From: a virus
Strand: one strand, 5' to 3'
Length of the DNA stretch: 55,256 nt
IMG/VR virus record: IMGVR_UViG_3300045988_123498
Translations under genes and position numbers: made by a program
Notes under the pieces: model-generated
The model's input: only the letters and a program-made list of their open reading frames with translations
Database searches by the model: none
Told to the model about the DNA's origin: nothing
Shown: positions 1-54,960 of the stretch, in pieces
How the letters are laid out: every line of letters starts with the position of its first letter
Numbering within the stretch: position 1 is the first letter of the stretch

Positions 1-87
1 ATTATACCAAGAATCATATCTTTCCTCCTACAATATTTATTAGGTATTTATCCCATAATATACGATGTTTTTATCGTCAAAAAAAAG
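1..87. repeat. Terminal direct repeat, left copy (identical to 55170..55256)
   Basis: The first 87 nt (attataccaagaatcat...tatcgtcaaaaaaaag) recur exactly as the last 87 nt. This is the signature of a circular or terminally redundant complete genome. Confidence 0.9.
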
Positions 88-113
88 AACACCCACTGTT
101 TTTCAAGTGGGCG
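46..113 (-). promoter_or_regulatory. Terminator-promoter cassette A (hairpin 90..113; promoter-like block 46..80); continues the copy at 55215..55256
   Basis: Minus strand reads CGCCCACT-tgaaaaac-AGTGGGTG TTCTTTTTTT TGACGATAAAAACATCGTATATTATGGGATAAATACC. GGAGG and the ORF 55121..55186 follow. Confidence 0.6.
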
Positions 114-136
114 CCCAATTATGGGTTTGTTCCTAT

Positions 137-502
137 TTAGTTTTTCTTCATCTCTTTCTTCATCTCTTTCTTACATTTTTTCAATACATCCCTAATGTAA
201 TTCCGTATTATCATACTTTTCCATACATCAAGTCCGTAGACGCTGAAATTGAGGTTTTTCACGCTCCCATTTTTTCCAACTTTCGCGAGTTCGAACATTA
301 CTTTATAGTAATCTCCATCGAAAGTGAATGTGTACCAAGTCGTACACGTTTCATAATCCGAGTGGTGGTCAACCATCTTATAATCTTCAAACGTTGCAAA
401 CGTTTTATCAAAAAAGAGCTTCCAATTCTCTTCAACCTCTTCGGCCTGAGCCCGAAATGCTGCCTTTACGGTTTCATCTTTTTTTGTCAGATAGAGTTTC
501 AT
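137..502 (-). CDS. Small early protein, family A (paralog of 1581..1895)
   Basis: 121-aa ORF with GGAGG upstream and its own cassette promoter and terminator. It shares the core F.(D/E)Y..(V/L)D.HS.Y(E/D)TC.T...F..GGDY..V.FEL.K with 1581..1895. Confidence 0.85.
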   Translation of the reverse strand: MKLYLTKKDETVKAAFRAQAEEVEENWKLFFDKTFATFEDYKMVDHHSDYETCTTWYTFTFDGDYYKVMFELAKVGKNGSVKNLNFSVYGLDVWKSMIIRNYIRDVLKKCKKEMKKEMKKN

Positions 503-530
503 AATAAAAAGTCCTCCAAAAATTCTATTA

Positions 531-598
531 GGATTTTATCCCATAATAGCATATGTTTTTATCGTCAAAAAGAACACTCACTGTTTTTCAAGTGAGTG
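531..598 (-). promoter_or_regulatory. Terminator-promoter cassette B (hairpin 575..598)
   Basis: Minus strand reads CACTCACT-tgaaaaac-AGTGAGTG TTCTTTT TGACGATAAAAACATATGCTATTATGGGATAAAATCC. The stem is a perfect 8 bp followed by a U-tract. Confidence 0.65.
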
Positions 599-620
599 CC
601 TTAGTTTGTTTCAATCCATG

Positions 621-770
621 TTACTTTATAAACCATTTGAATATTTCACAAACGACCAATATTACTGTTAGTGCTATCACCATCAACAGAAGATAGGGCG
701 CATAACTTATTATCATAATACTCCCTATTGCTGCTAATGATAAAAAAATCAACACCAGTATTGTAATCAT
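621..770 (-). CDS. 49-aa hydrophobic peptide (two predicted TM segments)
   Basis: Hand translation gives MITILVLIFLSLAAIGSIMIISYAPYLLLMVIALTVILVVCEIFKWFIK. GGAGGAACAAT precedes the ATG. It lies between cassettes C and B and is below the track length cut-off. Confidence 0.6.
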   Translation of the reverse strand: MITILVLIFLSLAAIGSIMIISYAPYLLLMVIALTVILVVCEIFKWFIK

Positions 771-800
771 ATTGTTCCTCCTAAATGTCAAAAATATTTC

Positions 801-838
801 GGATTTTACTCCATAATATACTATGTTTTTCTAGTCAA
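801..838 (-). promoter_or_regulatory. Cassette C, promoter-like block only
   Basis: Minus strand reads TTGACTAGAAAAACATAGTATATTATGGAGTAAAATCC. No canonical cassette hairpin lies upstream. Confidence 0.45.
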
Positions 839-844
839 AAATAA

Positions 845-1008
845 AAAAGAAAGTGTAAGTCAATATAGATGTGCACCCCCGTTTATATTAATTAGATATA
901 AACAACTCGTGCTGTCCTTACGGTCCCCAACCCTTACAAGTTGAGCATCTTCATTAGTTCATTCATACTTACAATTCTCAATTAGGTTCTTGTACTTACC
1001 TAATCTTT
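845..1008 (-). ncRNA. Candidate non-coding transcript (cassette-driven, no credible ORF)
   Basis: It lies downstream of cassette D. Only a 10-codon ORF without an SD is present. There is a local GC-rich core (911..940) and an 8-bp hairpin (881..903). Confidence 0.25.
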
Positions 1009-1070
1009 CTTTTCATAATATACTGTGTTTTCATCGTCAAAAAGAACACTCACTGTTTTTCAAGTGAGTG
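1009..1070 (-). promoter_or_regulatory. Terminator-promoter cassette D (hairpin 1047..1070), variant promoter
   Basis: The CACTCACT/AGTGAGTG hairpin is perfect. The promoter block is TTGACGATGAAAACACAGTATATTATGAAAAG, so the GGGATAAA element is replaced. Confidence 0.55.
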
Positions 1071-1114
1071 CCCTTTTTGGTTTTTAATCCTTATTCTTAT
1101 TCTTATTCTTATTC

Positions 1115-1447
1115 TTATTCTTCGTCTTCGTCCTCATCATCGTAGTTATCTTCGAACGTAGAAAATAAATCGAAAGGCCGAATCATACCTGTCCAATCAA
1201 GACGACCTTCATCTTCATCATAGTTCTTAAGCTGGAATACAGCTTCCATTCTGATACCTACAATCTTAAACTCAATAAACAATTCACATGTATTACGGTT
1301 AATGTAAGTTTCAAGAAGCTCGAATTCCGCGCAACAGAGCTGTTGAGTAAAAAGGTGTATCCAAGATTTCAGATATTCTTCTGATACCTCTTCAAATTTC
1401 TTCCTCATTTTCTCCAGTTCAATAACTTCCTTTGAATTTGTCTTCAT
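1115..1447 (-). CDS. Small acidic early protein, family B (paralog of 2030..2341)
   Basis: 110 aa with C-terminus DNYDDEDEDEE. About 50 percent identical by eye to 2030..2341 (VELEK.RKKFEEV...YLKSW...TCE...R.EA..QL..YDE..GR.DW). Confidence 0.85.
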   Translation of the reverse strand: MKTNSKEVIELEKMRKKFEEVSEEYLKSWIHLFTQQLCCAEFELLETYINRNTCELFIEFKIVGIRMEAVFQLKNYDEDEGRLDWTGMIRPFDLFSTFEDNYDDEDEDEE

Positions 1448-1474
1448 AACATGAATCCTCCAAATATAAATTAT

Positions 1475-1544
1475 GGGTATTTATCCCATAAAACTGCCTG
1501 TTTTTCTGGTTAAAAAGAACACCCACTGTTTTTTCAAGTGAGTG
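1475..1544 (-). promoter_or_regulatory. Terminator-promoter cassette E (hairpin 1520..1544)
   Basis: Minus strand reads CACTCACT-tgaaaaaac-AGTGGGTG TTCTTTTT AACCAGAAAAACAGGCAGTTTTATGGGATAAATACCC. Confidence 0.6.
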
Positions 1545-1580
1545 TCTTTGTTCGCTAAATCCCAACGTTGTTTCTTTTAG

Positions 1581-1895
1581 TTAATACTTTTCGCTAAAAT
1601 ATTTATACAGAGCTCTTACCATTAACGTATTTGTTCCATTAATCGTTATGAGTTGGTTTCCCGTTCCGTCGTCATCTATTTTCAATAATTCGAACACCAC
1701 CGAAAAATAGTCGCCTCCGAGTTCGAATATCACATAAGTTTCACATGTATCGTAAACTGAATGGACATCCAAAAGACGATATTCTTCAAATTTTTCGAAT
1801 ATCCTATCAAATAAATACTCCATTTTTTTCTCCACGTCTTTGGAATGTAATGCGTATTCCCTCTGTAATTCTTCCGTCTTTATAAGCGTTTTCAT
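1581..1895 (-). CDS. Small early protein, family A (paralog of 137..502)
   Basis: 104-aa ORF with a GGAGG RBS, flanked by cassettes F and E. Confidence 0.85.
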   Translation of the reverse strand: MKTLIKTEELQREYALHSKDVEKKMEYLFDRIFEKFEEYRLLDVHSVYDTCETYVIFELGGDYFSVVFELLKIDDDGTGNQLITINGTNTLMVRALYKYFSEKY

Positions 1896-1919
1896 AGCTT
1901 AAACCTCCAAAAATTATTA

Positions 1920-1989
1920 GGATTTTACTCCATAATACAACCTGTTTCCATCGTCAAAAAAAGAACACCCACTGTTTTTCAAGTGAGTG
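1920..1989 (-). promoter_or_regulatory. Terminator-promoter cassette F (hairpin 1966..1989)
   Basis: Same hairpin plus TTGACGATGGAAACAGGTTGTATTATGGAGTAAAATCC. Confidence 0.6.
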
Positions 1990-2029
1990 TTCTAGTCGGG
2001 TTTAAACCTTATTCTACTTCGTCCTCATC

Positions 2030-2341
2030 TTAGTCTTCATCATCGTCGAACGTAGTAATATAGTCGAGGGTTCGTGTTGCAGATATCCAATCCATCCGTC
2101 CAGACTCCTCATCGTATTGCTGAAGCTGTAATATAGCTTCTGTTCTGACACCCATCCACGTAAACTCAACACATGCCTCGCATGTATCAAATTTTACATA
2201 GGAGTCAAGAATCTTGAATTCTTCTCCAGAGTACATTTGAGTGTACAAGTCCGTCCAAGATTTCAGATATTTATCTGCAACCTCCTCGAATTTCTTCCTT
2301 ACTTTCTCCAATTCAACGATTTCACTGAATTCGTTTTTCAT
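2030..2341 (-). CDS. Small acidic early protein, family B (paralog of 1115..1447)
   Basis: I place the start at the internal ATG 2341 (MKNEFSEIVELEK...), preceded by GGAGGAATTTTT. The track start 2431 would read through cassette G. Confidence 0.8.
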   Translation of the reverse strand: MKNEFSEIVELEKVRKKFEEVADKYLKSWTDLYTQMYSGEEFKILDSYVKFDTCEACVEFTWMGVRTEAILQLQQYDEESGRMDWISATRTLDYITTFDDDED

Positions 2342-2369
2342 AAAAATTCCTCCGATAAAATATAGTTTT

Positions 2370-2438
2370 GGGTATTTATCCCATAATATACCATGTTTTC
2401 GTCGCAAAAAAGAACACCCACTGTTTTTCAAGTGAGTG
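2370..2438 (-). promoter_or_regulatory. Terminator-promoter cassette G (hairpin 2415..2438)
   Basis: Hairpin plus TTGCGACGAAAACATGGTATATTATGGGATAAATACCC. It terminates 2460..2648. Confidence 0.6.
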
Positions 2439-2459
2439 CCCTAGTTTGAGTTTTACTTT

Positions 2460-2648
2460 TTACTTTCTGTCTTTAATGACCTGAACTTTGCTATCAATGT
2501 CATCCAGTTTACACTGTATGTTTGCGATGTCGTTAATGTACGCATCTCTGTTTACGTCGTATACCTTTTTAGATATAAACAACCCTAACAATGCGCCGCC
2601 AATAACACACAAACCTTTTTCGATTATTTTATCAACGATGTTATTCAT
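2460..2648 (-). CDS. 62-aa single-TM protein
   Basis: ORF with a GGAGGATGCT RBS and hydrophobic segment GLCVIGGALLGLFI. It is the first gene served by a cassette promoter (H) after the holin. Confidence 0.75.
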   Translation of the reverse strand: MNNIVDKIIEKGLCVIGGALLGLFISKKVYDVNRDAYINDIANIQCKLDDIDSKVQVIKDRK

Positions 2649-2673
2649 AGCATCCTCCTAAAATATAAAGTAT

Positions 2674-2711
2674 GGATTTTACTCCATAATACACTATGTT
2701 TTTATCGTTTA
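2674..2711 (-). promoter_or_regulatory. Cassette H, promoter-like block only (overlaps holin stop)
   Basis: Minus strand reads TAAACGATAAAAACATAGTGTATTATGGAGTAAAATCC. Confidence 0.45.
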
Positions 2712-2959
2712 GGCTCCTCGTACGTCATCGCTAGGTCTGAATCTGATATACCGTTAGTAGTCGGGTCATTAACAATACCTAAAATTGTTAAAATTATAAA
2801 TACTGTAGAAACTATGTCGAGTAACGAAGACGATATACCGCTAAGGTCTAAATTGAGACCGAATAATTTACATACCTGCGTTACAAGTAAAATAACAGCG
2901 GGTATCATGGTCGTCCAAAATAACTTGTTCTTTAACCTAACTTTAAAATTTAATTTCAT
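2702..2959 (-). CDS. Holin, phage LL-H / phiLC3 family
   Basis: 85 aa. The sequence MKLNFKVRLKNKLFWTTMIPAVILLVTQV...LGIVNDPTTNGISDSDLAMTYEEP matches the characteristic phiLC3-type holin pattern (two TM segments, then IVNDPTT.G..DS..A..Y..P). Confidence 0.85.
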   Translation of the reverse strand: MKLNFKVRLKNKLFWTTMIPAVILLVTQVCKLFGLNLDLSGISSSLLDIVSTVFIILTILGIVNDPTTNGISDSDLAMTYEEPKR

Positions 2960-7526: not shown

Positions 7527-10500
7527 CTACATCCTTTCTTCTACTCGGACTGCGTTTATAAGCTGTAAGACTGCGTTCGCTATAGTTGAACCGTCGTCGT
7601 AGGAAATTCCATTTATTTCGTAATTGTTTACTGTTTTAGGTGTACCGGATACGTTCTTCAAAATATCAAGCGGAGATATAGTGTTCGAACGATTAGCGTT
7701 AAACATGCTATTGGACGTAGCCGCTAATCCGAACGAAGTACTAATACTAAATCCGTCAAATATAGAGTTAATCCGTTTACCGCCAGATGTAATATCTGAT
7801 AAATCAAGAATCGGTCTAATTGTAGGCTGAAACTCAGTCGATAAACTAATAGCGTTCGCTACGTCTTCTGCGGCGCTTTGTAATCCGTTTGCTTTAGTAC
7901 CAGCGTGACCACGTGTCTTTTTATCGATTGTAGAGTATATACCGTCGAGTATAATACCAGCCCTATCTTTTGCTCTATCAGCTTTATCAGACATACCGTC
8001 AATGATGGAAGATATTATTTTTACACCGATATTGTAGAAATCATTTGTAGCAGTCGGGCCTATTCCCAAACGATAATTGAATTCAGCAATTATAAGTGAC
8101 ACTACATTACCAGCGCCGATTCTTATGCTTTCTTTTTTATTATCATCATTTAAGGTATTGGCTATTGTTTCCATAACTGTAGTCATTATAGTTGCTATCG
8201 GTTTTTCGATAGGGTCTAACAATGCGTCACTGAAACCTCTTCTCGTTATTTCACCAGCAGAATAACCTGCGGAATATAAGTCCTTATATCCATCTTTATA
8301 TGCTAAAACATAATTGTCGATAGAGATATGAGCGAATTCTACTAATGCTTCAGCGAAATTTTCCAAACCAGAGAAATCGTAATCCGCCATTTTGGTACTA
8401 AAATCATACATAGCATCAGCTAACGCCGTTAACTTAGCACCAAATGAATTAGCACCGGTTGTAGTTACACTTTCCATACTTGCACCAGCCGCTGATAAAT
8501 CGTTTATCGCTTTCGCTGCGCTTGTTACAGCCGTTTCATCTATGTTCTTTACTTTATCGCTAAAACCTTTAATTTTTTCGCCTAAAGTTTTGAAATTATC
8601 ACCGAACTTACCGATTAGATTCTTATCCAAAATAGCTTTATTGCCATTTTCTTCGGACGGTAATACACCGAGAATGCTTGTAACAATATAACTTACATCA
8701 TCCACCATGCCTTTAGGGTCGTCGCCTAAATTACCGTCAACTGTGGATGAGAAATTTACTACTGACGTACCGAAACTTTCCAGCTGGACGCCGAAATCAC
8801 TCAAGTCTTTTTCAGACGTGAATAATGATGATATAACACCCTGTTGAGGAGCTAACGAGTTTGTTAAAGAAGCGAAAATATTACCTGCGTAATACGCTGC
8901 GTCTACTGCTCTAGGATTGATTTTAACAGTACCGTTTTCATCGACGACAGCATCACTAAATCTAATCATAGATTGTCCGTAAGCTTCTATACTAAGACCG
9001 AAGTCTTCTAAGCTTTTGGAGCCAGCTACTTTTTGCCAGAAACCGTTTCTCGTAGGAACTTTTCCGTTTAACTCAGCCATTATTCCGCCAGCATCTGCAG
9101 CGGCTTGAATCGATTCTGTATTTAATCTACTCTTACCTTCAGAATCAGTAACAGTATTACTAAACAAAACCATAGCGGCACCATATGCAGCACAACTTGC
9201 TCCAAATAAACCTAGGTCAGTTTCACCCATTATTTTACTAACCCAACCTTTACGTTTAGGAATTTTATCGGCCAATTCTGTCATTAATAATCCGGCTTTC
9301 TTTGCTGTATCTATCGCGCCTAAGTTTATTACGCTGTTACCTTCATCATCTGTTAACGCGTTGTTCATGGCCACTATTGCAATTCCAAAACCAGCTACTG
9401 ATGCGCTAAACGAATCGAAGTCAGCATCATTAAATGCCGCGACTGCCGGTATTGCTTCTTGTAATGAAGTAATCATTTCGCCTATAGATACAGCAGCAGT
9501 AACAGCTTCGACATCGATATTACCAGATACGACGTTGGAAAACTCTACCGCAGCATAACCGAATGATACCAATTTCGATAACATGATATCAAAAGTATCA
9601 CTTGAACCAGTAAAAAACTCTATGAAACCGGTTAAACTTTGGAGTAGTTCAGCCTTTGTTATCATCATTAATGCGTCGCATAATGCTTTAGCTCCCATTG
9701 CTCCATCTGGTCCCATTTGTTTACAAGCAATAATAAACGGTATAGATGCAACAGCAAATTTGCTTAATTGAACGCCAAGGTCGAACATACTAGGAACGAA
9801 CGGTAGTAAATTAGTTATTCCTTCAATTAATTGGGCTACACATAATGCTAATATAGAAGCTACTAAAATTCCGGCACCAGTAAGAACCTGCTCATCAGCG
9901 GCGAGTTTCATTACTTCTATGAAACCATTATTTAAATTGTTAGCGAAGTCGCTAAGTGCTTGACCAAACGCAGGTAAAATTTGCATTATTCCTTCGGCTA
10001 TACCGGCTATAAACGCGCCAATCATTTGTCCTACTGTGTTAGCAAGTTTAATCATGATAGGAGCGCCTGTATTAATATACTCTTCTATTTGAGGATATTT
10101 TGATGCTAAGGCGCCGATTGCAGTTATTAAACCTCCCAATACAACCAATACCGCCGATAATGCTCCTATAGCTACACTAGCTATTAAAGCTAATGGTGCT
10201 AACGGAGCGACTTTAATTAATACGTCTGATATTGCGTTTAGTAAGAATACTAATATTATTGCATTTGCAGTAGCGTTGTCTATGCCTTGCATTAACGCTA
10301 AAACACCGACTATAGCCAACATGGACACTATAACACCGGCTAATATAATCATAGCTGCTTTCCATCCAGCACCAAGAACATCTAACGATAACACTGCGGC
10401 AACTAAACCTAACGCGATTATTAATGGTACCATTGCCAACATAATTGCGGTTAAAGCTAGAGCGCTTGGAATAGCATTATTTACGTTCTTTAACATTAAT

Positions 10501-13500
10501 AACGATGCCGAAATTATTAACATAGCTCCACAAACCATTATTATTAAAGCTAACATTGATTTTATAACGCTCTCGTCTAGTGTAACATTAGCATAAGATA
10601 ATATTACGACAGCCGCAGCCAATGCATTTATTAAAATAGCTAAAGATAATGCTGTTTTGATACTTGTTTTAACCTTAAGTTTATCCATAGCTAATAATAT
10701 CGCGCCTAATATGCCCATTACTAGTGACATTATTACTAACGATTTTAATGCACCTTTTTTTATCTCTTTCGATTGACTTAATATCAATACTGCAGCTGCT
10801 AGTGCATTTATAAGGACAGCTAAACTTAAAACGGTAACTATGTTAGATTCAACATGTAACGTATCGAGTAAAAATAAGATACCACCTATAATAACTAAAA
10901 CGCCAGATATAATATAGAGCGCCGTAATTGTTTTACTATCTAAATCCTTAACTTTGGATATTATTGCTAGCGACGACGCTAACGCCAACATTAAAATACC
11001 CAACGCTATAGCTGTACCTAAAGCAGTCTTAGAATCAACACCCAATTCGCACATACCGTATATAACACCAGCTATTATTATAAGTAGTACTCCTACTGAA
11101 ATCATACCTTTAATAGCTTCTTTAGACCCATTAGCGTACTTAGATGCTATCATCATGCCAGATATAGCAGCTGCCAATATCGTCATAGCACCAACGGCGC
11201 TGTATAATCGTTCTGGCTTTATTAAAGAAAATAGTAATATAGCTACAGTCACTACTGATAGCATGGCAACTATTGCAAGTAAAGATTTTCTAGCATCGCT
11301 TTTAACTTCACCAGCTGCAACCATCAAACCGGATATTAAAATAGCGAATATTCCTATTACAGTTACACCTTTTTCCAAAAGACGTGTCGGTACAAAACCT
11401 ATCGCTACAGCCAAAGCACCCATTAAAACCATAGCGAATGTAACTAATAATATAGTACCACCTATTGATAAAGCACTACCTTTAACATCGCCCATGAAAT
11501 GACCGACTGCAATTAATGCAGATACTAAGCCTGCAAATATCCATAAAACACCTATTCCTCGTTTTAAGTTTTTGTCGCTTATTTTAGATATAGCCTTTAT
11601 AACTAAGGTCATTACTCCGAACGCAATAGCTATGTATAATATCATTTTACCGACATTGCTATAAGCTCGTTTAGAACCAGCGCTATTAGAATTGAGGAAG
11701 TCGATAACACCTTGAACAACCATTAATGCTATGACTAGACCAGTGAATTTCTTTAATGTATTTATTCCTCTATCGGCATCTTTTTCAGATATACTACCAG
11801 CGTACTTTACAACTTTCGCCATTACTAAAAATGATACGGATATGTATAGCATGTTCTTTCCGGCGTTGTTCATTGACTTACACAGTGCGTTAATGGCCAT
11901 CATCTGTATAACCATCCATTTAAAGGCGTTTAATGTGACTAAACCTTTAAATATCGTATCAGAATCCATTTTTCCTACGGATTTCATAACGTTAGCCATT
12001 ATTAAAAATGAAATTGCTATGTATACCATAGTTTTTCCAGCGCCATTGACTTTATTCGATATAGCCGATAACGGTATTAATGTTAAAGCAATAAGCCATA
12101 AAGCACCCATCATAACTATTGCTTGAGCTACGTTCTCTTGTTTTATACTAGCTAATATCGTAAACGCCAAAGCCATCAGGAAGAAACTGGCAGCTATACC
12201 TATAAGATTTAATACTGTGTCGTTTATAATCTTTTTATCTTTATCGATTTTATTAAACGATGACGATTTTTTGTCTAAAAAGTACATTAACGTCACAAGT
12301 GCTGCTAATATGATGGTTATAATTTCAATAACTGTAATTGCACGTTTCAAACCATCATCATCGATTTTAGATAAAAGAAATATAGATGCTGATATTAAAG
12401 CGATGCTAATTGCTATAGAATATATCATCTGAGTTACAGCTTTTATTTTTTTAGCTTTTCCTAACTCAGTCATTAAGTTGTTAATGCCGATTGTTAAATT
12501 GTTTGCAGCTTTTGTTAAAATAGTTAACGGATTGTTAGATACTATTTCAGATATTTTATCTAACGTTGAATCTAATTTTCCAACTCCTTTAGCTAACGAA
12601 ATCGCTAATCCTCCGAAAATAATAGTACCCCATGGAATTTTAGAAAAAAACTCCAGAATTTTAGGCATGTTAGTTATTAAATATTTAACGCCTGATACTG
12701 TTAAATCTTTCAGAGTAGTTATAGCCTTGCCTACGAACTTAGTAACGGCCTCTACAGTGGTCATAGTAGCATTGCCTATACCAACTGCGAATCCTTCACC
12801 AGTCAATTCACCGTATTCCATAGGAACTCTAGCAGGCGAATGTATTCCTAAAATCTCCCGTAAAGTCGATAATATAGTGTTTGCTAAAAGTCCTACAACT
12901 TCTTTAACTTTAACAATACCACTTTTTAATCCGTTTACCAAACCAGATATTATGTATTCTGGTATATTATCTGTGTTTTTTAATCCATCAATCCATTTTG
13001 AAGTTTTATCTATTAACTCGGATATTACACTTCCGACTTTAGTTAAAATACTTCTTAAAACACTGCTGTTTTTTATCCAATCAACGACCTTTGTAACTAC
13101 TTTTTCTATAAAGTATGCTACACCTTGTAAAATAGTACCTAAACCAGACGCGATTTTATTTAATAAATCGTTTTCTTTAGCCCAATTATAGATTGACTTA
13201 GCAGCGTCGACTATTAGTTTGATTATCGGTGTTAATATTCGTTTTATTCCGTTTAAAATTCCGGAGCTCTTTAAAGTATTTTTTATCCAATTCCTAACTG
13301 CTACTATTGCGTCGCCCAACGCAGCAGTTACATCTAAAATTTTTATACCAAACGTCTCAAAAATAAAACGAATGGCTTTCATCGCTAGTGAAACACCTCC
13401 ACCAACGACCATTCTAATTAAATCTAATACAGCGAATAATCCATTGAACGTTCGCGTTATCTTGTTGGATACTTCTTCTGTAATTTGTAGCTCAGAAGTT

Positions 13501-15074
13501 AACTTTCTAAACCCAGCAATAAGATTGAAAACAGGATTTACATTGTCTAAGCTACCGAATATATTATTCCACGATTTGGAAATCGATTTACCGAGACTTT
13601 TTATTATTTTAACTATATTAGATAGACTATCTAATAATAAACTCGACATAGACAGAAGACTATGGTCTTTGACTACATCGTCTACAGAATATCCAGCTTT
13701 ATTAGCGTATATACTTAATTGTGCCATTGCGTCAGATAAGCCAGAAACAGACGTTTTCGTAGCTGCGTAGTTTCTTTTTGTTAACGCTAATGTGTTATTG
13801 CTTAAATTTATTACTTGGTTGCTATCAGAAACGTTATTAGTTAAATCATCTATTGTATTAGATAACTGTTCCGCATGTCTATACGTAGAACCAAGGGTTT
13901 CGTTTACTCCATTTTGAACTTCTACCCAGTTATATCCCGCGTTAGTTAATTTGTCCCAACGTTTAGCACCAACATCCCATTTTCCGTTAATAACTTCGTT
14001 TATAACATCAGAAGCGTTAGTAATTATTTTAGATGTTGATTGTACCTTAGTCCCTATATCGTCAAACGTCTGCTTAACCGCTGTGAACGGTTTTAGGATT
14101 TTAGAAGCTATACTTGAAAAATCTATTTTATTAATTATAGACGTTGCCCAATTTATAGCTTTGATGGCTATATCGACTATTTTAGAGATTGTCGGAGCCA
14201 ACGTGTCTTTTAATTCGTTTGTTTTTACCCTAAGAGCATTAAATAATTGAACTAATGCACCGTTTTGTTCAATCAGCGGGGAATAGAATAAAGCACCTAT
14301 TCTTCCTAACGCAGATTTTACGTTTGATAAGGCACCAGTCATCGTTTCGTTAGCTTTCTTAGCATGTTCTCCGAATGCGGAATCCATAGCTTGAGAAAAC
14401 ATATCGAAACTGATTTGACCTTTTGATACCATATCTCTAACAGCGGCTTCTGTCAATCCAAATTCTTCAGCTAACGTAGCTGCCGCGTTCATACCCCTGC
14501 CTGACAATTGCAATAACTGGTCACCCATCAATCGACCTTGACCAGCAACCTGCGTAAATATCCTGCCGATATCTTCATACGAAGAATTTGTCATGGCTGC
14601 AACACCAGCTATACCTCGTAAAGCAGTAAACATCTGGTCTCCAGCTTTAACGTTTGATGCTGCTAACTGAGAAGCTACTTTAGCTGCTGCATCCAATCCA
14701 TATGCTGTTCCATCGACAGATTTACTAACGTCGTTCATTATTTCTGAAACTTTTTCTTCGTCTTTTAATAAACCTTGTAACTGGAAGTGTGCATTTTCAA
14801 GGTTTTCTGCTCGACGTTTACCACCTTCTGTCACACTTTTAAGTGCGGCGTCGATTCCTTTTATAGCGTATTTTATAGCTATAAAAGTCTTAACTTCAGT
14901 TCCAATTTTCGTTACATAAGAATATAAATTGGATATATCTTTGGACAATTTTGTTGTGTCCAAAGTCCGTTGTAATTTATCTAATGTGTTTATAGTTACC
15001 TTGGCATTCTTTTCAAACGACGCATTATCGAACTTCATCGATAATACTCTTTCGTCTACTCCTTTGCCGCTCAT
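7527..15074 (-). CDS. Tape measure protein (2515 aa)
   Basis: The N-terminal TMP core is ...AAKVASQLAASNVKAGDQMFTALRGIAGVAAMTNSSYEDIGRIFTQVAGQGRLMGDQLLQLSGRGMNAAATLAEEFG. There is a huge hydrophobic repeat region, and the gene sits between the chaperones and the distal tail genes. Confidence 0.9.
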   Translation of the reverse strand: MSGKGVDERVLSMKFDNASFEKNAKVTINTLDKLQRTLDTTKLSKDISNLYSYVTKIGTEVKTFIAIKYAIKGIDAALKSVTEGGKRRAENLENAHFQLQGLLKDEEKVSEIMNDVSKSVDGTAYGLDAAAKVASQLAASNVKAGDQMFTALRGIAGVAAMTNSSYEDIGRIFTQVAGQGRLMGDQLLQLSGRGMNAAATLAEEFGLTEAAVRDMVSKGQISFDMFSQAMDSAFGEHAKKANETMTGALSNVKSALGRIGALFYSPLIEQNGALVQLFNALRVKTNELKDTLAPTISKIVDIAIKAINWATSIINKIDFSSIASKILKPFTAVKQTFDDIGTKVQSTSKIITNASDVINEVINGKWDVGAKRWDKLTNAGYNWVEVQNGVNETLGSTYRHAEQLSNTIDDLTNNVSDSNQVINLSNNTLALTKRNYAATKTSVSGLSDAMAQLSIYANKAGYSVDDVVKDHSLLSMSSLLLDSLSNIVKIIKSLGKSISKSWNNIFGSLDNVNPVFNLIAGFRKLTSELQITEEVSNKITRTFNGLFAVLDLIRMVVGGGVSLAMKAIRFIFETFGIKILDVTAALGDAIVAVRNWIKNTLKSSGILNGIKRILTPIIKLIVDAAKSIYNWAKENDLLNKIASGLGTILQGVAYFIEKVVTKVVDWIKNSSVLRSILTKVGSVISELIDKTSKWIDGLKNTDNIPEYIISGLVNGLKSGIVKVKEVVGLLANTILSTLREILGIHSPARVPMEYGELTGEGFAVGIGNATMTTVEAVTKFVGKAITTLKDLTVSGVKYLITNMPKILEFFSKIPWGTIIFGGLAISLAKGVGKLDSTLDKISEIVSNNPLTILTKAANNLTIGINNLMTELGKAKKIKAVTQMIYSIAISIALISASIFLLSKIDDDGLKRAITVIEIITIILAALVTLMYFLDKKSSSFNKIDKDKKIINDTVLNLIGIAASFFLMALAFTILASIKQENVAQAIVMMGALWLIALTLIPLSAISNKVNGAGKTMVYIAISFLIMANVMKSVGKMDSDTIFKGLVTLNAFKWMVIQMMAINALCKSMNNAGKNMLYISVSFLVMAKVVKYAGSISEKDADRGINTLKKFTGLVIALMVVQGVIDFLNSNSAGSKRAYSNVGKMILYIAIAFGVMTLVIKAISKISDKNLKRGIGVLWIFAGLVSALIAVGHFMGDVKGSALSIGGTILLVTFAMVLMGALAVAIGFVPTRLLEKGVTVIGIFAILISGLMVAAGEVKSDARKSLLAIVAMLSVVTVAILLFSLIKPERLYSAVGAMTILAAAISGMMIASKYANGSKEAIKGMISVGVLLIIIAGVIYGMCELGVDSKTALGTAIALGILMLALASSLAIISKVKDLDSKTITALYIISGVLVIIGGILFLLDTLHVESNIVTVLSLAVLINALAAAVLILSQSKEIKKGALKSLVIMSLVMGILGAILLAMDKLKVKTSIKTALSLAILINALAAAVVILSYANVTLDESVIKSMLALIIMVCGAMLIISASLLMLKNVNNAIPSALALTAIMLAMVPLIIALGLVAAVLSLDVLGAGWKAAMIILAGVIVSMLAIVGVLALMQGIDNATANAIILVFLLNAISDVLIKVAPLAPLALIASVAIGALSAVLVVLGGLITAIGALASKYPQIEEYINTGAPIMIKLANTVGQMIGAFIAGIAEGIMQILPAFGQALSDFANNLNNGFIEVMKLAADEQVLTGAGILVASILALCVAQLIEGITNLLPFVPSMFDLGVQLSKFAVASIPFIIACKQMGPDGAMGAKALCDALMMITKAELLQSLTGFIEFFTGSSDTFDIMLSKLVSFGYAAVEFSNVVSGNIDVEAVTAAVSIGEMITSLQEAIPAVAAFNDADFDSFSASVAGFGIAIVAMNNALTDDEGNSVINLGAIDTAKKAGLLMTELADKIPKRKGWVSKIMGETDLGLFGASCAAYGAAMVLFSNTVTDSEGKSRLNTESIQAAADAGGIMAELNGKVPTRNGFWQKVAGSKSLEDFGLSIEAYGQSMIRFSDAVVDENGTVKINPRAVDAAYYAGNIFASLTNSLAPQQGVISSLFTSEKDLSDFGVQLESFGTSVVNFSSTVDGNLGDDPKGMVDDVSYIVTSILGVLPSEENGNKAILDKNLIGKFGDNFKTLGEKIKGFSDKVKNIDETAVTSAAKAINDLSAAGASMESVTTTGANSFGAKLTALADAMYDFSTKMADYDFSGLENFAEALVEFAHISIDNYVLAYKDGYKDLYSAGYSAGEITRRGFSDALLDPIEKPIATIMTTVMETIANTLNDDNKKESIRIGAGNVVSLIIAEFNYRLGIGPTATNDFYNIGVKIISSIIDGMSDKADRAKDRAGIILDGIYSTIDKKTRGHAGTKANGLQSAAEDVANAISLSTEFQPTIRPILDLSDITSGGKRINSIFDGFSISTSFGLAATSNSMFNANRSNTISPLDILKNVSGTPKTVNNYEINGISYDDGSTIANAVLQLINAVRVEERM

Positions 15075-29606: not shown

Positions 29607-30230
29607 TTACATATTTCTTATAATATTTTACAACTACAGACAAGAATTTATACAAGGAGGAAGACTTTTATTATGCATTGGAGGAAGATACATAAGGTTT
29701 TTCTTGTCTGTATGTGTAAAATATCATAGAAACATGGTACTTTTTATACACTTTTTCAGTATTTTTTTAGAAAAATATCCCTCCGGAGATTTTTCTAGGA
29801 GCCGCCCGATGCAAGGAGGGGGGGTTGTTTTTCAGACCCCCCCGGGGTGCTACAAACGACGCTGCGGTGGGGTAAAGCTGCTTTTCAGTAGAAGAAAAAG
29901 TGTTTGAAAAAGAAAATAATGTATACGAACCGTTCTACCCCCGACGTTCGTCAACGAAACACTTTTGTTTGCGTAACACAGCGGTGTACCTATAAGATTA
30001 AGCTTTCTTCATACTAAATAAAATATTTTACCCCGTAACGGTATGCAGCGTCACAAAGAAATTGGCATTTAATTTTTTTAATTTTTTTAAAATTTTTTAA
30101 TTGTTTAAACGTTTTTCTTTTTAATTAATTCAAACAACAAACAATTCTTTTTGTTTTAATTAGATAAAACTATTTGTTAATTTGTTTTAGTTAATCATTA
30201 AACGTTTAGAAAACTATGGAATAAAAGACA
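29607..30230. other. Largest non-coding region (624 bp): putative late-operon control region, ori or pac candidate
   Basis: No credible ORF. It contains an 11-bp IR (29636..29646 / 29701..29711), a 30-nt AT hairpin (29768..29797), a G7/C7 hairpin (29818..29843), a GC-rich stretch to ~30050 and an A/T-tract block (30060..30230). Confidence 0.6.
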
Positions 30231-30520: not shown

Positions 30521-33433
30521 TTAACCCCCCTTTATTATATTTGATACGGTAGATGTTGATATTCCAAAGCGTTTAGCAATTTCCTTTAGTGTATAATTGC
30601 TATTCGCCATGGCTCGGATGGCTGATTTACGGGCATCAGTGAGACCGTCATCGCCCTTGGGTCTAAGTTTTTCCCTTAGTACGTCAGGGTCAGAATTGTC
30701 TAATATTTTCTTGAGGTCGTTTTCCGATATAGCCCTATTTTTAATAGCTTCCCATTCCGGGTCTGATATTTTTATATTTCTATCGCTACGTTTTATAGAC
30801 CCTACAAGACCCCTATATTTAACCATAGTATTCTGGGAGAGCTTTTTAAGGTCTTTCGTAGGCATGTCGTTACCACCGTGCTTTTCCTTATACGCGGTAC
30901 GTATTCCTTCTATTTCTGAAGTGGCTAGACGGATAGCTGCACGCTCTCTAGGTCTATTCAGGAGTGCTGAATCCAATTTTCTCTTAAGAGATTGTACCTC
31001 CTCCGCATATTTAGATGTAGCTACGGGGTCTCTTTTTGCTTTCTCTGAGAATACGGCATTTAGACGTGCCTGATTTGCTAGTGATTTTAGAGTAGACGCA
31101 TAATCAGCGTATAGATTCTCCATTACAGTGTTAGATGTAGAGATTAAAGTCCTCGGGTCATCAGTAGCAGCCATTTTAGTAATTTTTGTTTTCTTCTCGA
31201 CCTTTTTAACCGAGATTAATTCACCAGTTTTAGGGTCGTACTTTTTAAATGTTGCAATTTGGTCAGGGTCTTCCTGCCATATTAGAGAACCTTCAGGTCT
31301 TGATGGGTCGTACCAAGGTTTTCCTTTAACATTAACTTTAGGGGAACCTTTTCTACGAGGAACATACTCGACGCTTTTAGCTCTTGTTAACAAAGTAGAA
31401 GCACCGCCTGTTTTTCCGTTATCTTTAATCTGATACTTATCTTTTAAATCTTGTATATTATACTCGTAATAAGCAGCTTTGTAGTCCAACCCGTGTTTTT
31501 CTGCATCAATAACTACCATAGAGTATTTAACAGCACGTTCCAGCTCATCATCAGATGCTCCGAGAATCGTCATGTCACTAATTAGATTAGTTGCTACACC
31601 CATTTGCTTTTGGGTATCAAGCATACCTTTAAACTTTACTCCATTACGCTCATAAATCTTGGTGTCTCCGACTGTTTTAACCAAATTACCTTGGAATTTG
31701 TCTTTAGGGTCGAATCCCTTTAAACCAGCTAACGGTGCAGTCGATAAGATGTTAATCTTTCCTTTAGGGTCGTTTGTCGGAATACACATTACAGTATCTC
31801 CGTCAAAGTCTGCACCTGACAATCGAGCTGCAACTTCTGATGTTATACCAACAGCATCGATAGATGAAGGTCCAATAACTTTTTCGCCTTCTTTATTACG
31901 GTTATTAACTGTTAGTATAGGTATTTCAAATGTTCCGCCGTGAGGATACCTTACCAAAGCTAATTTAGTTCCGTTTTCATACCTAGGTGCATAAATTTCG
32001 TTGTTCCTAAGTGAATTTATAGGAAGGATTACGTTATAGTGTTGGTCAGGAAACGCTGCCGCTTGAAGTGTTTCAGATTGCTTATCACACGATTCTGCAA
32101 ATTTATTTAAATAATATCGTTTTACTTCTGGTACATCATACGACATTATCTCAGCCAATTCATCTTTTTTATCAGCTATAGCTAAATCTATTTGTTTTTT
32201 AGCTAAATATTTTGGTTGTTTAGATAAAAACTGGCTAGGAACGGCTTTTTTCCATTCGTCCCAATCACCTTCTTCTCTAGTTTTATTAATAGGAGAAAGT
32301 TTCTTTTTACCGTCAGAATCTATGTATTCATACTGACCGTCAGCTTTAATCAAAGCTCCGAATGGATTGTTAGGGTCATCTTCTTTTATACTTTTCAATA
32401 CTTCATCAAACGATTTATTTGATGACTTATTGGTGTTAAATATTACATCAACACCGTCAGGCATATCTTTACCATCAGAATAAACCGCCATACCCTTAAG
32501 GTATTTATCTTTGCCAACAAGAATACGAACCTGCGAATACAATGAATTACCCAGAGATAAATCTTTGACCCCTCTTCGTATTTCTATTAAACCATCTTTT
32601 TGAATACCTTTAAATCCATCAGGACCAACATCGTCAGCGTATCGAATCATAACCCTCTTTCTATCAAGAGAAGCAGGATATTGGGTTTTTCTAAAAGTTT
32701 GACCACCGTCGTCAGATGTATATTCCATTAACGAGTTAACTTTTCCCCAGTCATCAAATATTTCTCGATGTTCAGTGCCCGGCGGACATGCAACTTTCAT
32801 CGTAGTAAATTTTTTTCTATTAGTAGGTTGCTCTACTCGTCCACCATAGATTTCATACCCTTTTGATTTAAGTATAGTCAAAGCTTGATTCATTTTTTCC
32901 TGACTTATTCCAAGCTCTCGACATACGTCTGTACCGACGTCAACCATACCAATTTCATCGATTCGATTCTTTATGAATTCAGCTGCATTTTTAGCCTGCA
33001 GCATCCTTCGTTTAGAATCAGCGTCGAACAGAGATTTAACTGTCGATAACGGTATTCCAGTCTTTCTTGAAATTTCAGAATCGTTAAGACCATCTTTTCT
33101 TAAAGACTCAACTCTATAGACATCGTAAAGACGTTTCTCGTCCTTAGCTATACCTATCTGACTCCTTAATTCAGTAGATTTAATACCAAGAACCTTTGCT
33201 ATAGCATTATCGCCAGTATACAGCTCTCCGTCTTCGTCCGTGTATGTATATTTTTCTTTTCTAGCCTGTTTAATAAAGTCTAGAAAGTCTCCTGGATGTT
33301 TATACCAACTTTCATGTTGAAAAGGATTTTCACCAGACCCCCAAGGATAACGTCCGGAACGTCGAGGCATACCTATATGTTCTATGTGACTTTCATTTTC
33401 ATAAATATCATTGAAATCATATGATATGTTCAT
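30521..33433 (-). CDS. Candidate single-polypeptide two-barrel RNA polymerase (YonO / crAss gp66-like) with HTH domains
   Basis: aa ~306-336, GKDKYLKGMAVYSDGKDMPDGVDVIFNTNK, is beta-like. aa ~494-552, VRYPHGG...AVGITSEVAARLSGADFDGDTVMCIP, is beta-prime-like. DFDGD is encoded at 31796..31810. Several HTH-like segments are present, including the C-terminal LKEIAKRFGISTSTVSNII. Confidence 0.55.
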   Translation of the reverse strand: MNISYDFNDIYENESHIEHIGMPRRSGRYPWGSGENPFQHESWYKHPGDFLDFIKQARKEKYTYTDEDGELYTGDNAIAKVLGIKSTELRSQIGIAKDEKRLYDVYRVESLRKDGLNDSEISRKTGIPLSTVKSLFDADSKRRMLQAKNAAEFIKNRIDEIGMVDVGTDVCRELGISQEKMNQALTILKSKGYEIYGGRVEQPTNRKKFTTMKVACPPGTEHREIFDDWGKVNSLMEYTSDDGGQTFRKTQYPASLDRKRVMIRYADDVGPDGFKGIQKDGLIEIRRGVKDLSLGNSLYSQVRILVGKDKYLKGMAVYSDGKDMPDGVDVIFNTNKSSNKSFDEVLKSIKEDDPNNPFGALIKADGQYEYIDSDGKKKLSPINKTREEGDWDEWKKAVPSQFLSKQPKYLAKKQIDLAIADKKDELAEIMSYDVPEVKRYYLNKFAESCDKQSETLQAAAFPDQHYNVILPINSLRNNEIYAPRYENGTKLALVRYPHGGTFEIPILTVNNRNKEGEKVIGPSSIDAVGITSEVAARLSGADFDGDTVMCIPTNDPKGKINILSTAPLAGLKGFDPKDKFQGNLVKTVGDTKIYERNGVKFKGMLDTQKQMGVATNLISDMTILGASDDELERAVKYSMVVIDAEKHGLDYKAAYYEYNIQDLKDKYQIKDNGKTGGASTLLTRAKSVEYVPRRKGSPKVNVKGKPWYDPSRPEGSLIWQEDPDQIATFKKYDPKTGELISVKKVEKKTKITKMAATDDPRTLISTSNTVMENLYADYASTLKSLANQARLNAVFSEKAKRDPVATSKYAEEVQSLKRKLDSALLNRPRERAAIRLATSEIEGIRTAYKEKHGGNDMPTKDLKKLSQNTMVKYRGLVGSIKRSDRNIKISDPEWEAIKNRAISENDLKKILDNSDPDVLREKLRPKGDDGLTDARKSAIRAMANSNYTLKEIAKRFGISTSTVSNIIKGG

Positions 33434-34285: not shown

Positions 34286-34371
34286 TGGTACTCGTGGTGG
34301 GACTTGAACCCACATGAATAAAATTCGACGGATTTTAAGTCCGTTGCGTATGCCAATTCCGCCACACGAGC
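34286..34371 (-). tRNA. tRNA-Leu(UAA): tRNA-Leu (anticodon UAA), type II with long variable arm, CCA encoded
   Basis: GCTCGTG-TG-GCG-GAATTGGCATA-CGC-A-ACGGA-CTTAAAA-TCCGT-CGAATTTTATTCAT-GTGGG-TTCAAGT-CCCAC-CACGAGT-ACCA. All four stems pair and the T-loop is TTCAAGT. Confidence 0.93.
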
Positions 34372-34404: not shown

Positions 34405-34468
34405 CTCATCTATTCCTATCATAAAAGGACTTGTTTTTCTCGTCACCCCCTTAACCGAAAAACTTCTC

Positions 34469-34560
34469 GTGGCCAAAAACCCACTTTTTTTCGATAAAAC
34501 TTTTTTATTAATAATATTAATAATAATAATCATAAAGAAAAAAAGTGGGTTTTTGGCCAC
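34469..34560. repeat. Perfect 23-bp inverted repeat around a 46-nt pure A/T spacer
   Basis: The arm gtggccaaaaacccacttttttt (34469..34491) is the exact reverse complement of aaaaaaagtgggtttttggccac (34538..34560). Confidence 0.85.
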
Positions 34561-50462: not shown

Positions 50463-50503
50463 GAAAAAATATAAAGGAGACTGTGTTTTTAATCACAATC
50501 CCC
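50463..50503 (-). terminator. Intrinsic terminator candidate
   Basis: Minus RNA reads GGGGAUUGUG-auuaaaaa-CACAGUCUCC (10 bp including two G.U pairs) followed by UUUAUAUUUUUU. Confidence 0.55.
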
Positions 50504-50537
50504 TTTACATACCTCCTTTTTTTAATCGTATTGAGTT

Positions 50538-50834
50538 TTATTTAACTTCTTCTCCGTCACAATCAATCACATCACAGTCGTTGATGTCAACAACCTTTTT
50601 TCTGTTTTTGTGCTCCTTGATTTTTCTGTCCAGCAGCTTATACAGCTTAATTCCGCCGTAAATAAGACCGCCGATTGCTGCAGATGCACCAATTCCTATT
50701 CCTATTCCTCCAAGCGTTAAGTTTTTCGCTGATGATACTACTGTTTCAGTAATATCAGTTGCACCAACGGTGTTGGTTACCGCATTTTCAACCGCGTTAG
50801 TTACGTGAGTTACGTTTTCGTTGAGTTCGTTCAT
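50538..50834 (-). CDS. 98-aa membrane protein
   Basis: Track ORF with a Gly-rich TM segment, LGGIGIGIGASAAIGGLIYGGI. Confidence 0.8.
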   Translation of the reverse strand: MNELNENVTHVTNAVENAVTNTVGATDITETVVSSAKNLTLGGIGIGIGASAAIGGLIYGGIKLYKLLDRKIKEHKNRKKVVDINDCDVIDCDGEEVK

Positions 50835-50938: not shown

Positions 50939-50961
50939 CTCTTGCTTTCTACTTACCTATT

Positions 50962-51114: not shown

Positions 51115-51139
51115 AGTATCCTCCAAGTTTTAATTTTTT

Positions 51140-51974: not shown

Positions 51975-51986
51975 TATCGATTCTCC

Positions 51987-52897: not shown

Positions 52898-52914
52898 ATG
52901 ATTATGCCTCCAGA

Positions 52915-54959: not shown

Positions 54960-54960
54960 C

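Follow-up and report, generated by a model that had tools for sequence, protein, structure and literature searches.

Putative terminator–promoter cassettes punctuating the small-gene array of a siphovirus, with a promoter core shared by phages of Firmicutes and Actinobacteria

The virus record IMGVR_UViG_3300045988_123498 (hereafter the window, i.e., the whole stretch of 55,256 nt that was analysed) is a complete siphovirus genome in circular assembly, with a G+C content of 35% and a negative GC skew over its whole length, in which all convincing genes lie on the minus strand. The late genes run from 29.6 kb down to 2.7 kb, encoding terminase, portal, a protease–capsid fusion and tail proteins and then the lysis functions, and they are followed by a small-gene array of ~7 kb (from 2710 to 1 and on from 55169 to 50868), which separates the lysis from the replication genes. 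The latter code for a 1305-aa primase-polymerase, a helicase and a ribonucleotide reductase, after which come a tRNA-Leu gene and the gene of a 970-aa protein. The array proteins are ORFans, mostly tiny or membrane proteins, that belong to no known family, and their status as early genes is inferred from gene order. This work is concerned with a conserved cassette, composed of a hairpin and a promoter-like block, that is repeated between the genes of this array.

The first 87 bases of the window are identical to positions 55170-55256, an exact overlap of its ends. Thus, cassette A, which the first-pass annotation had placed across the genome junction, does span it and is counted once. Moreover, a G/C-rich cos-like site at ~29,800 has its homologue at the genome end mapped in Arthrobacter phage Circum, and a physical cos end is predicted near 29,800 from this homology. 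The assembly junction within the array would therefore not be the genome end, and the 87-nt overlap would be an artefact of the assembly circle rather than a terminal repeat.

The anatomy of the cassette can be read directly on the minus strand. In its full form, the stop codon of one gene is followed by GGGCACUCACU-UGAAAWAC-AGUGGGUGUUC and then by UUCUUUUU, which overlaps the block xACGAnAAAAACA; this continues, after N5, into T(A/T)TTAT-GG(G/A)(A/G)TAAA. On the 3' side of the block lies an A/U-rich leader of ~20-25 nt, often containing TTTATATTTT, and then GGAGG and the ATG of the next gene. In agreement with the 15 repeats (eight plus seven) reported from a first inspection, 15 distinct promoter blocks are found in 1..2712 and 50864..55103, on the minus strand only and each with GGAGG and a start codon behind it, while a 16th copy, beyond the coordinates given at that time, lies at 34446..34415 in front of the tRNA-Leu and RNA polymerase operon. 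Every cassette is intergenic, oriented with the genes and followed by a ribosome-binding site (RBS) and a start codon. The 24-mer of the common, lineage-specific ('house') hairpin, CACYCACTGTWTTTCAAGTGRGYG on the plus strand, has 10 matches with zero mismatches as against 0 expected in shuffled sequence, and an eleventh house hairpin at 1546..1517 has a 9-nt loop, which makes up the eleven near-identical hairpins that had been noticed. Four promoter copies (837, 2710, 50900 and 51175) lack the house hairpin; one of them is the first of the array, and the other three follow other structures. Degenerate promoters occur in cassettes 4 and 12. Twelve of the 15 modules hold one small gene, the three exceptions being one of ~5 genes, one ORF-less module (i.e., without an open reading frame, ORF) of 134 nt and one with RBS-ATG-TAA only, so that at the level of sequence the cassettes enclose, with few exceptions, one small gene at a time, as had been proposed. 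The features are the following, in window coordinates.

47..116, minus strand: cassette A, with hairpin 116..87, U-tract and promoter 79..47; its gene, for a hydrophobic peptide of 21 aa, starts at 17 (=55186) and runs across the junction.
55216..55248, minus strand: duplicate image of cassette A, in the end overlap.
535..600, minus strand: cassette 2, hairpin 600..572 (perfect U-A variant) and promoter 567..535; gene 502..137 (121 aa).
805..837, minus strand: cassette 3, promoter block only, after the T-rich end of the ORF-less module; gene 770..621 (49 aa).
1009..1072, minus strand: cassette 4, hairpin 1072..1044 and degenerate promoter 1040..1009 (TATTATGAAAAG); the ORF-less 134-nt module is at about 1008..845.
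1480..1546, minus strand: cassette 5, hairpin 1546..1517 (9-nt loop) and promoter 1512..1480 (TTTTATGG variant); gene 1447..1115.
1924..1992, minus strand: cassette 6, hairpin 1992..1963 and promoter 1956..1924; gene 1895..1581.
2375..2441, minus strand: cassette 7, hairpin 2441..2412 and promoter 2407..2375 (1-nt deletion in the box); gene 2341..2030.
2678..2710, minus strand: cassette 8, which opens the array as its first promoter, right behind the last late/lysis gene (stop at 2702) and without hairpin; gene 2648..2460.
30521..33433, minus strand: gene of the two-barrel (QDE-1/YonO-like) RNA polymerase, 970 aa, with DFDGD motif and N- and C-terminal helix-turn-helix (HTH) domains; candidate promoter reader.
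34415..34446, minus strand: 16th promoter copy, GTGACGAGAAAAACA-AGTCC-TTTTAT-GATAGG, upstream of tRNA-Leu (34371..34286) and the operon ending with the RNA polymerase gene.
50868..50948, minus strand: cassette 9, the last one before the replication genes, with a different 17-bp hairpin 50948..50907 (-22 kcal/mol) and promoter 50900..50868; gene 50834..50538.
51143..51175, minus strand: cassette 10, promoter block only; gene 51114..50962.
54037..54104, minus strand: cassette 11, hairpin 54104..54075 and promoter 54069..54037; the only multi-gene module (54008..51173).
54348..54414, minus strand: cassette 12, hairpin 54414..54386 and degenerate promoter 54380..54348 (CTGTTATGGGAAT); gene about 54316..54125.
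54633..54699, minus strand: cassette 13, hairpin 54699..54671 and promoter 54665..54633; gene 54600..54430.
54895..54962, minus strand: cassette 14, hairpin 54962..54933 and promoter 54927..54895; gene 54857..54717.
55037..55103, minus strand: cassette 15, hairpin 55103..55075 and promoter 55069..55037; payload GGAGG-N7-ATG-TAA only (55011..54995).

The pairing of the hairpin is strand-specific, as its earlier description as a minus-strand RNA structure required. The common variant folds at -14.2 kcal/mol in the minus sense versus -8.9 kcal/mol in the plus sense, an asymmetry that is due to three G.U pairs. The fourth stem pair, described as U.G in most copies, is U.G in nine of the eleven house hairpins of the window and U-A in the other two, and among 86 hairpins of nine related genomes it is U.G in 68, U-A in 17 and C/A in none; two further G.U pairs lengthen the stem to 11 pairs, and these pairs, up to three in one hairpin, form only in the minus-sense RNA. 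Scans for terminator patterns call the house hairpins (9 found versus 1.1 expected, and 10 versus 2.1), which have the make-up of intrinsic terminators, that is, behind a stop codon, a G+C-containing hairpin that runs directly into a U-tract on the sense strand. The hairpin stands just 3' of the stop codon and 5' of the block, the RBS and the start codon, and at the level of sequence all predictions of the terminator-plus-promoter reading of the first-pass annotation hold. The 8-11-bp hairpin with UUCUUUUU would form in the RNA of the upstream mini-gene and end its transcript as an intrinsic terminator, probably also shielding the 3' end, and the abutting block of ~35 nt would start the next transcript. 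Termination and initiation, like the timing and the polymerase considered below, are deduced here from sequence features. The array between the lysis and replication genes is therefore proposed to be a string of single-gene transcription units.

The relationship between the cassettes and the genes they flank becomes apparent by comparison with close relatives. A pattern search with the hairpin, of the kind suggested along with the first description, retrieved eight IMG/VR contigs of the same design (30-56 kb, all from one metagenome) and one 6.7-kb contig binned in a metagenome-assembled genome (MAG) of an uncultured Clostridia bacterium, the sole match in the genome collection, by which the host is not established. 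The 24-nt hairpin pattern is specific; a scan of viral contigs with the 14-mer TATTATGGGATAAA gave single chance matches only; a blastn search of 1-2712 against GenBank phages gave no match, and relatives there were found via the polymerase protein instead. The family set, including the window, comprised nine genomes with 85 cassettes, and the genomes were cut at the cassettes and the payloads clustered. The payloads of the window follow each other in the order G A L A I B J K C D E F H M N, and the orders in the relatives differ by whole modules: I-J-B is found versus I-B-J, A-L-A is missing in some genomes, O or a unique module stands in the place of K (K/O/r* alternatives), and four modules are unique to single genomes. 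The cassettes thus coincide with the breakpoints of indels and replacements among close relatives. Shared modules are mostly 85-100% identical, with some alleles at 68-74%, and hairpins are virtually identical even beside modules that are only ~70% identical. Two paralogous pairs in the array indicate module duplication, one formed by 2030..2341 and 1115..1447 (proteins of ~105 aa, 68% DNA identity) and the other by 51987..52727 and 52915..53586, two phrog_2152 proteins that are probably of the family labelled 'DUF6353' three times in the equivalent array of Faecalibacterium phage FP_oengus.

Because they are near-identical, the cassettes are proposed to act as recombination sites: they would be portable sites at whose boundaries whole modules are inserted, lost, replaced and reordered, and the same recombination would keep the hairpins homogenised within a lineage. 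Against such ongoing homogenisation, the near-identity of the hairpins could also come from shared descent. The two halves of the cassette are separable, since four copies of the promoter occur without the hairpin in all relatives and, conversely, IMG/VR contig 3300045988_091881 has at position ~4037 (joined, oriented) a house hairpin followed by a TTTATATTTTGGAGG leader with no promoter block, a natural terminator-only junction. On this evidence, the cassettes are likely to be shuffling units in which terminator, promoter and recombination points are combined.

Two other explanations of the repeats deny this expression role or give the hairpin a different one. The one raised together with the first description, that the cassette is a selfish element resembling a miniature inverted-repeat transposable element (MITE), or another mobile element of intergenic DNA without a function in expression, draws on the many near-identical short copies and their restriction to intergenic positions. 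However, it has to accommodate that 16 of 16 copies in the window and 85 of 85 in the family are oriented as the genes and stand at gene boundaries at a fixed distance from the RBS and start codon, that no terminal inverted repeats exist beyond the internal hairpin and no target-site duplications were seen at modules that one genome has and another lacks, and that five distant phage lineages retain the same two-part design in other sequences; it is hence very improbable. Among the window proteins screened, no transposase family was matched, only some of the genes having been run against protein-family libraries. It is also improbable, although clearly less so, that the palindrome serves mainly as a recognition element for a protein or RNase, be it a duplex DNA operator for a dimeric phage regulator or an RNA hairpin for processing or stability. 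The identity of the hairpins goes far beyond the needs of a terminator, with only four arm variants among 86; the window family and Circum (CTAACAC, on varying stems) each keep a conserved loop; copy A has GCCCACTT as its 5' arm; and boxes related to the arms, AAGTGGGCA and GCCCACTT, lie in direct and inverted orientation at 34.67-34.82 kb, which an RNA hairpin cannot explain. However, the U-tract always follows the hairpin, distant relatives keep its shape and not its sequence, and the arms are systematically asymmetric (CACTCACT versus CACCCACT), giving G.U pairs in RNA and a non-palindromic site in DNA. This asymmetry, together with the promoter copies that stand without a hairpin (four in all relatives) and the one relative in which a hairpin stands without a block, makes a duplex operator unlikely. 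A secondary role of the hairpin at the DNA level may exist, given the related boxes at 34.67-34.82 kb.

In that same region of the genome, 34471..34840 on the minus strand is dense in GCCCACTTTT and AAAAGTGGGCA boxes, direct and inverted, which resemble the hairpin arms; AATATATTATTTGGGGGTAAAAATGC is present in two copies, and a stretch of A+T only is enclosed by the two arms (34558..34538 and 34491..34471) of a 21-nt inverted repeat. The whole has the appearance of an origin of replication or of an array of regulator-binding sites.

The promoter half of the cassette is conserved in a different manner. Its consensus is xACGAnAAAAACA-N5-T(A/T)TTATGG(G/A)(A/G)TAAA, in which the N5 is fixed, so that the gap between AAAAACA and TATTATGG, previously given as 6-8 nt, is in fact always 5 nt. 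Conservation extends over ~35 nt, including 8-12 nt after the hexamer, and likewise continues behind the hexamer in phages Popy (GAGACCCCTA) and 1706 (AGAAAG; see below). Promoters specific to phage polymerases, such as those of T7, N4, phiKZ and P23-45, are of this type, with a motif of at least 20 nt that is conserved beyond the melting element too and repeated before genes of one temporal class. Invariant among the 85 copies are the A and C of the box, an A, AAAAACA and T.TTATGG, although the filter for copies demanded TATGG and AAACA with at most one mismatch and the invariance of these letters is partly built in. The conservation ascribed to the TTGACG box is therefore true of its A and C but not of its G, which is found in only 60% of the copies.

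Moreover, the five distant members that were examined all have a syntenic small-gene array with the same punctuation. The core that reads ACGAnAAAAACA-N5-TATTAT-GG in the window has its equivalent in about 12 blocks of FP_oengus, CGCGAAAAATACA-N5-CTTTAT-GG (in its longer form GACGCGAAAAATACA-N5-CTTTATGGA(A/G)G), and in nine blocks of the Arthrobacter phage Circum, CGCGTAAATTACA-N5-TATAAT (also written TCGCGTAAATTACA-N5-TATAAT). In Lactococcus phage 1706 (34% GC), 11 blocks of CGCATGTTTTACA-N5-TATAGT-AGAAAG come after GAGG...CCTC-U8-10 hairpins, and in Streptomyces phage Popy (59% GC), 12 blocks of TCGCATATTTTACA-N5-TATAGT-GAGACCCCTA are on the plus (coding) strand and 0 on the minus strand; MT835495 has two blocks, in front of the polymerase gene. 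A CG box, an A/T run, ACA, exactly 5 nt, TAWWRT and purines form the shared core, with a near-identical 24-nt AT-rich version in the Lactococcus and the Streptomyces phage, while the house hairpins differ between lineages. Those of FP_oengus (n=7), GAGCTTACGA-GAAA-TCGTAGGCTC-U, are 100% paired, with four of ten pairs compensatory and a covariation score of 0.486 versus 0.19 in shuffles (0/500 reach it); those of Popy (n=10) read GACCCC-GCAA-GGGGTTTGGGTTTCG; and those of Circum keep the CTAACAC loop on variable stems. Judging by these sequences, the hairpin is a lineage 'house style' whose shape is kept. Its lineage-specific sequence and the breakpoints at the cassettes point to modular duplication and recombination, whereas the promoter core, being conserved in phages that infect Firmicutes as well as Actinobacteria, speaks for recognition of its sequence. 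The two causes of near-identity originally offered as alternatives, duplication of modules and specific recognition, thus fit one half of the cassette each, the former the hairpin and the latter the promoter block.

Within a comparison set made up of polymerase-encoding phages only, motif and polymerase gene co-occur in the window, FP_oengus, MT835495, 1706, Circum and Popy, and WWWW-ACA-N5-TAWWRT with a CG box is common to all six. The polymerase in question is the 970-aa protein, which matches PHROG 4291, 'RNA-dependent RNA polymerase', and has an ADFDGDT loop that is invariant in 32 homologues. Its AlphaFold model (pLDDT, the predicted local distance difference test, of 74) matches QDE-1 with E=4e-9 and probability 1.0, followed by RDR2 and then by the large subunits of multisubunit polymerases. 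With a DxDGD loop and a double-psi beta-barrel fold, it is confirmed by its modelled fold as a two-barrel polymerase. A PDB search by sequence only, with the polymerase or a 4-sequence profile, gave HTH matches only; a C-terminal 'Sigma70_r4' match is one of about 30 generic HTH matches, of which HTH_23 scores better, and no sigma region 4 is claimed. Homologues with 34-51% identity number 250 in GenBank phages (Faecalibacterium FP_oengus, the Lactococcus 1706 group and phages of Arthrobacter, Gordonia, Streptomyces, Microbacterium, Curtobacterium and Rhodococcus), and there are >8000 in metagenomes. A cross-phylum supercluster with the HTH-bearing RNA-dependent RNA polymerase/YonO-like protein as its signature has been defined, the function of this protein being inferred from sequence only (Koert et al., bioRxiv 10.1101/842583); the text of that study makes no mention of promoters, and no transcriptome, promoter or virion proteome for the supercluster was found in the literature. 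The 1706 homologue, orf75, is annotated as 'structural protein' in GenBank, as are two other genes of that arm, and ReqiPoco6 gp106 bears the same label by similarity. By analogy with N4, crAss-like phages and P23-45, the label of orf75 would allow delivery of the polymerase with the virion.

The next point is which enzyme reads the block. The resemblance of TTGACG...TATTAT to a sigma-70 promoter is misleading. TTGACG lies 14 nt from TATTAT in the window, and not at the 16-18 nt implied by the earlier description, and a sigma-70 scan calls none of the cassette promoters. The distance from TTGAC-like letters to the hexamer is not constant among the phages either (14 nt in the window, 16 nt in FP_oengus and 20 nt in Circum), and such letters are absent in 1706. 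The equivalent of T-7 is invariant. At the A-11 equivalent, the 85 window-family copies have A 60 times and T 21 times, the FP_oengus copies have T almost throughout, and those of Circum, 1706 and Popy have A. Moreover, each phage conserves 10-12 nt behind its hexamer, and in seven of eleven 1706 copies TATAGT is followed without a gap by the full Shine–Dalgarno (SD) sequence AGAAAGAAGG; a copy each in FP_oengus and MT835495 also has the SD directly abutting the hexamer. A start ~7 nt downstream would leave most of such an SD untranscribed, which suggests, on sequence grounds, initiation at or next to the hexamer in a T7-like layout. A T7-type promoter reads, from -17, TAATACGACTCACTATA followed by GGGAGA. 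The likeness is one of layout only, with A/T-rich recognition upstream, a specificity part, a TATA-like melting part at the start and purine-rich initial bases, and 1706 accordingly reads CTATAGTAGA; the two-barrel enzyme is unrelated to T7 RNA polymerase, and the start site is here predicted from sequence. In the window, FP_oengus, Circum and MT835495, a promoter copy precedes the polymerase operon itself. Since the core is conserved in every examined relative that encodes the polymerase, the phage two-barrel polymerase is considered, on balance, the probable reader of the block; it may reach the cell with the virion and initiate at or next to the hexamer. Among other candidates, alternative sigma factors (sigma-B GGGTAT, sigma-D and the extracytoplasmic-function type AAC/CGT) and the T4 late TATAAATA do not fit the invariant positions.

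A good deal weighs against this assignment. The promoter half could be an ordinary strong early promoter for the host sigma-A, without -35 or of the extended kind, with the two-barrel polymerase then transcribing the late operon. In such a promoter, TATTAT would serve as the -10 element and GGGA as a discriminator of favourable sequence, and the A-tract/ACA box would play the part of an UP-like element or a spacer. This possibility is a serious one, if not the one we favour. TATAAT (Circum), TATAGT (1706, Popy) and TATTAT (window) are good -10 elements, and TATTAT-GGGA resembles a -10 element with optimal discriminator, as in E. coli promoters. The terminators are canonical for a bacterial polymerase. 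A hairpin with a U-tract is indeed the classic stop signal of the multisubunit bacterial enzyme and is not known as one for QDE-1/YonO-like enzymes. The polymerase operon lies behind the same promoter class in four phages, as expected of a class read early by the host, and the late genes, all in one orientation, are packed into a single block just downstream of the polymerase gene and cos. The interval from cos to the first late gene contains a different conserved motif (TTCTCCTTTAYA-like), which could be the late promoter of the phage polymerase. The motif at 29647..29663, CTTCCTCCTTGTATAAA, downstream of the cos-like site, resembles GTTCTCCTTTACATAG in 1706 and GTTCTCCTTTATACGG in FP_oengus and is a candidate late promoter or terminase site. 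Furthermore, YonO, the only characterised relative from a bacterial virus, transcribes late and not early genes, as one operon (PMC5467207). The 'structural protein' label of 1706 could not be traced to primary data, and transcript 5' or 3' ends, timing data and polymerase assays for any member are absent from the searchable literature. Nevertheless, sigma-A accounts poorly for the missing -35 at 16-18 nt and the sites left uncalled by the scan, for T at the A-11 equivalent in 25% of the window-family and nearly all FP_oengus copies, for the SD that abuts the 1706 hexamer and for the 10-12 conserved nt behind the hexamer within each phage. Host promoters share only TANNNT, and a 24-nt core shared by a Lactococcus and a Streptomyces phage is hard to explain in this way. 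The probability left over falls to a phage factor acting with the host enzyme, or to something else.

The cassettes can be compared with several known systems. The first of these are the PeSL (promoter early stem-loop) motifs of T4-like myoviruses of Gram-negative hosts, composite terminator/early-promoter motifs that serve as homologous exchange sites, so that genes travel with their own signals (Arbiol et al. 2010, PMC2839356; Comeau et al. 2014, PMC4122927). In both cases, small composite motifs of conserved sequence are repeated in a hyperplastic ORFan region, and indels and replacements between close relatives occur at the motifs; the window family has the adjacent stem-loop and promoter in repeated form, with breakpoints at the motifs that flank small ORFan genes. 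However, the sequences are unrelated, the lineage is here that of the Gram-positive siphoviruses of the 1706/Oengusvirus/Mudcatvirus supercluster, and the promoter half, whose core is conserved across host phyla, is without the sigma-70 geometry of T4 early promoters, which are read by host sigma-70. Given the other phage lineage and this lack of sigma-70 geometry, the cassettes are to be regarded as an analogue of PeSL and not as a member by descent.

A second parallel is the Thermus phage P23-45, which has a pre-early promoter, conserved 26-nt terminator motifs and, in its virion, an RNA polymerase that forms a fusion with the tape measure protein (Chaban et al., bioRxiv 10.1101/2022.12.01.518664). 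Both systems possess a two-barrel polymerase, a conserved AT-rich promoter before many small genes that are expressed first (presumably so in the present case) and terminators of unusually conserved sequence in the same region. Unlike in P23-45, the tape measure protein has no polymerase domain and the candidate enzyme is separate and of the QDE-1/YonO branch; virion delivery rests solely on the GenBank annotation of the 1706 homologue, and the terminators look like an ordinary hairpin with U-tract. A fusion in the P23-45 style was sought in, and rejected for, the 2515-aa tape measure protein, which shows only TMP_3, CW_7 and a long membrane-helix region and no PDB match to a polymerase. This protein (7527..15074, minus strand) has its CW_7 cell-wall-binding repeat near residues 356-394 and ~900 residues of consecutive predicted membrane helices.

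The third system is YonO of SPbeta, a single-subunit two-barrel phage RNA polymerase that transcribes one long late operon (Forrest et al. 2017, PMC5467207) and whose promoter specificity is acknowledged as an open point (PMC5467207). It is phage-encoded and of the same broad enzyme class, but is without the HTH-rich ends described for the 970-aa family, and the YonO family is listed apart from the 1706 family by Ruprich-Robert and Thuriaux. In SPbeta, the region upstream of yonK (9153-10833) contains TATAATGGG near 9870, to which no weight is given here.

Some further elements of the array and its surroundings deserve mention. The ORF-less module behind cassette 4 (845..1008, minus strand) has no ORF of more than 10 codons, is 98-100% identical in six of eight related genomes, above the coding modules, and has a folding energy of -41 kcal/mol (z = -3.1). 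It is without a match in Rfam and can be regarded as a small RNA candidate. Start-stop mini-ORFs (GGAGG-N-ATG-TAA) are found at 54995..55011 and 50505..50516 on the minus strand. The former, which is the whole payload of cassette 15, is kept in relatives, and the latter overlaps the 5' arm of a strong terminator, 50510..50469, that divides the array from the replication genes. This arrangement could be a translation-coupled read-through switch. Of the 10-mer TTTATATTTT there are 11 exact copies on the minus strand and a single one on the plus strand (e.g., 2660, 34276, 34374, 40257, 41863 and 50466), usually placed directly after a hairpin and 5-15 nt ahead of an RBS or gene start, and a ATTTATATTTTGGAGG leader is also present in FP_oengus, with 50% GC. 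Possible functions of the 10-mer are those of a leader or enhancer, of a processing site or of a U-tract; as a real -10 element it was discarded, since a start downstream of it would remove the RBS. Lastly, the tRNA-Leu (34286..34371, minus strand; anticodon UAA) has TTTATATTTTTT on both sides, and a small hairpin with T-tract lies only ~20 nt downstream of the 16th promoter, ahead of this tRNA.

Composite terminator–promoter shuffling cassettes and phage-specific sets of early promoters and terminators were already known. What appears to be new is the occurrence and proposed role of such cassettes in this supercluster, whose searched papers mention neither promoters nor terminators, and a cross-phylum promoter consensus, unlike that of sigma-70, that co-occurs with an uncharacterised polymerase family. 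The PeSL principle, in which expression signals double as recombination joints, is thereby extended to an unrelated and widespread supercluster of Gram-positive siphoviruses. In its most complete form, which is advanced tentatively and with slightly less than even confidence, the proposal is that the block is a previously undescribed promoter of a virion-carried and injected HTH-bearing QDE-1/YonO-like polymerase, which would transcribe the mini-genes and its own operon, stop at the house hairpins and work independently of host sigma factors. A consensus promoter conserved across phyla is now available for direct testing with the 970-aa polymerase and, were it host-independent, would supply compact terminator–promoter parts for Gram-positive synthetic biology. 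If the full proposal is true, each cassette would amount to a complete unit of expression that does not depend on the host, and this could account for the passage of the phage backbone from one bacterial phylum to another.

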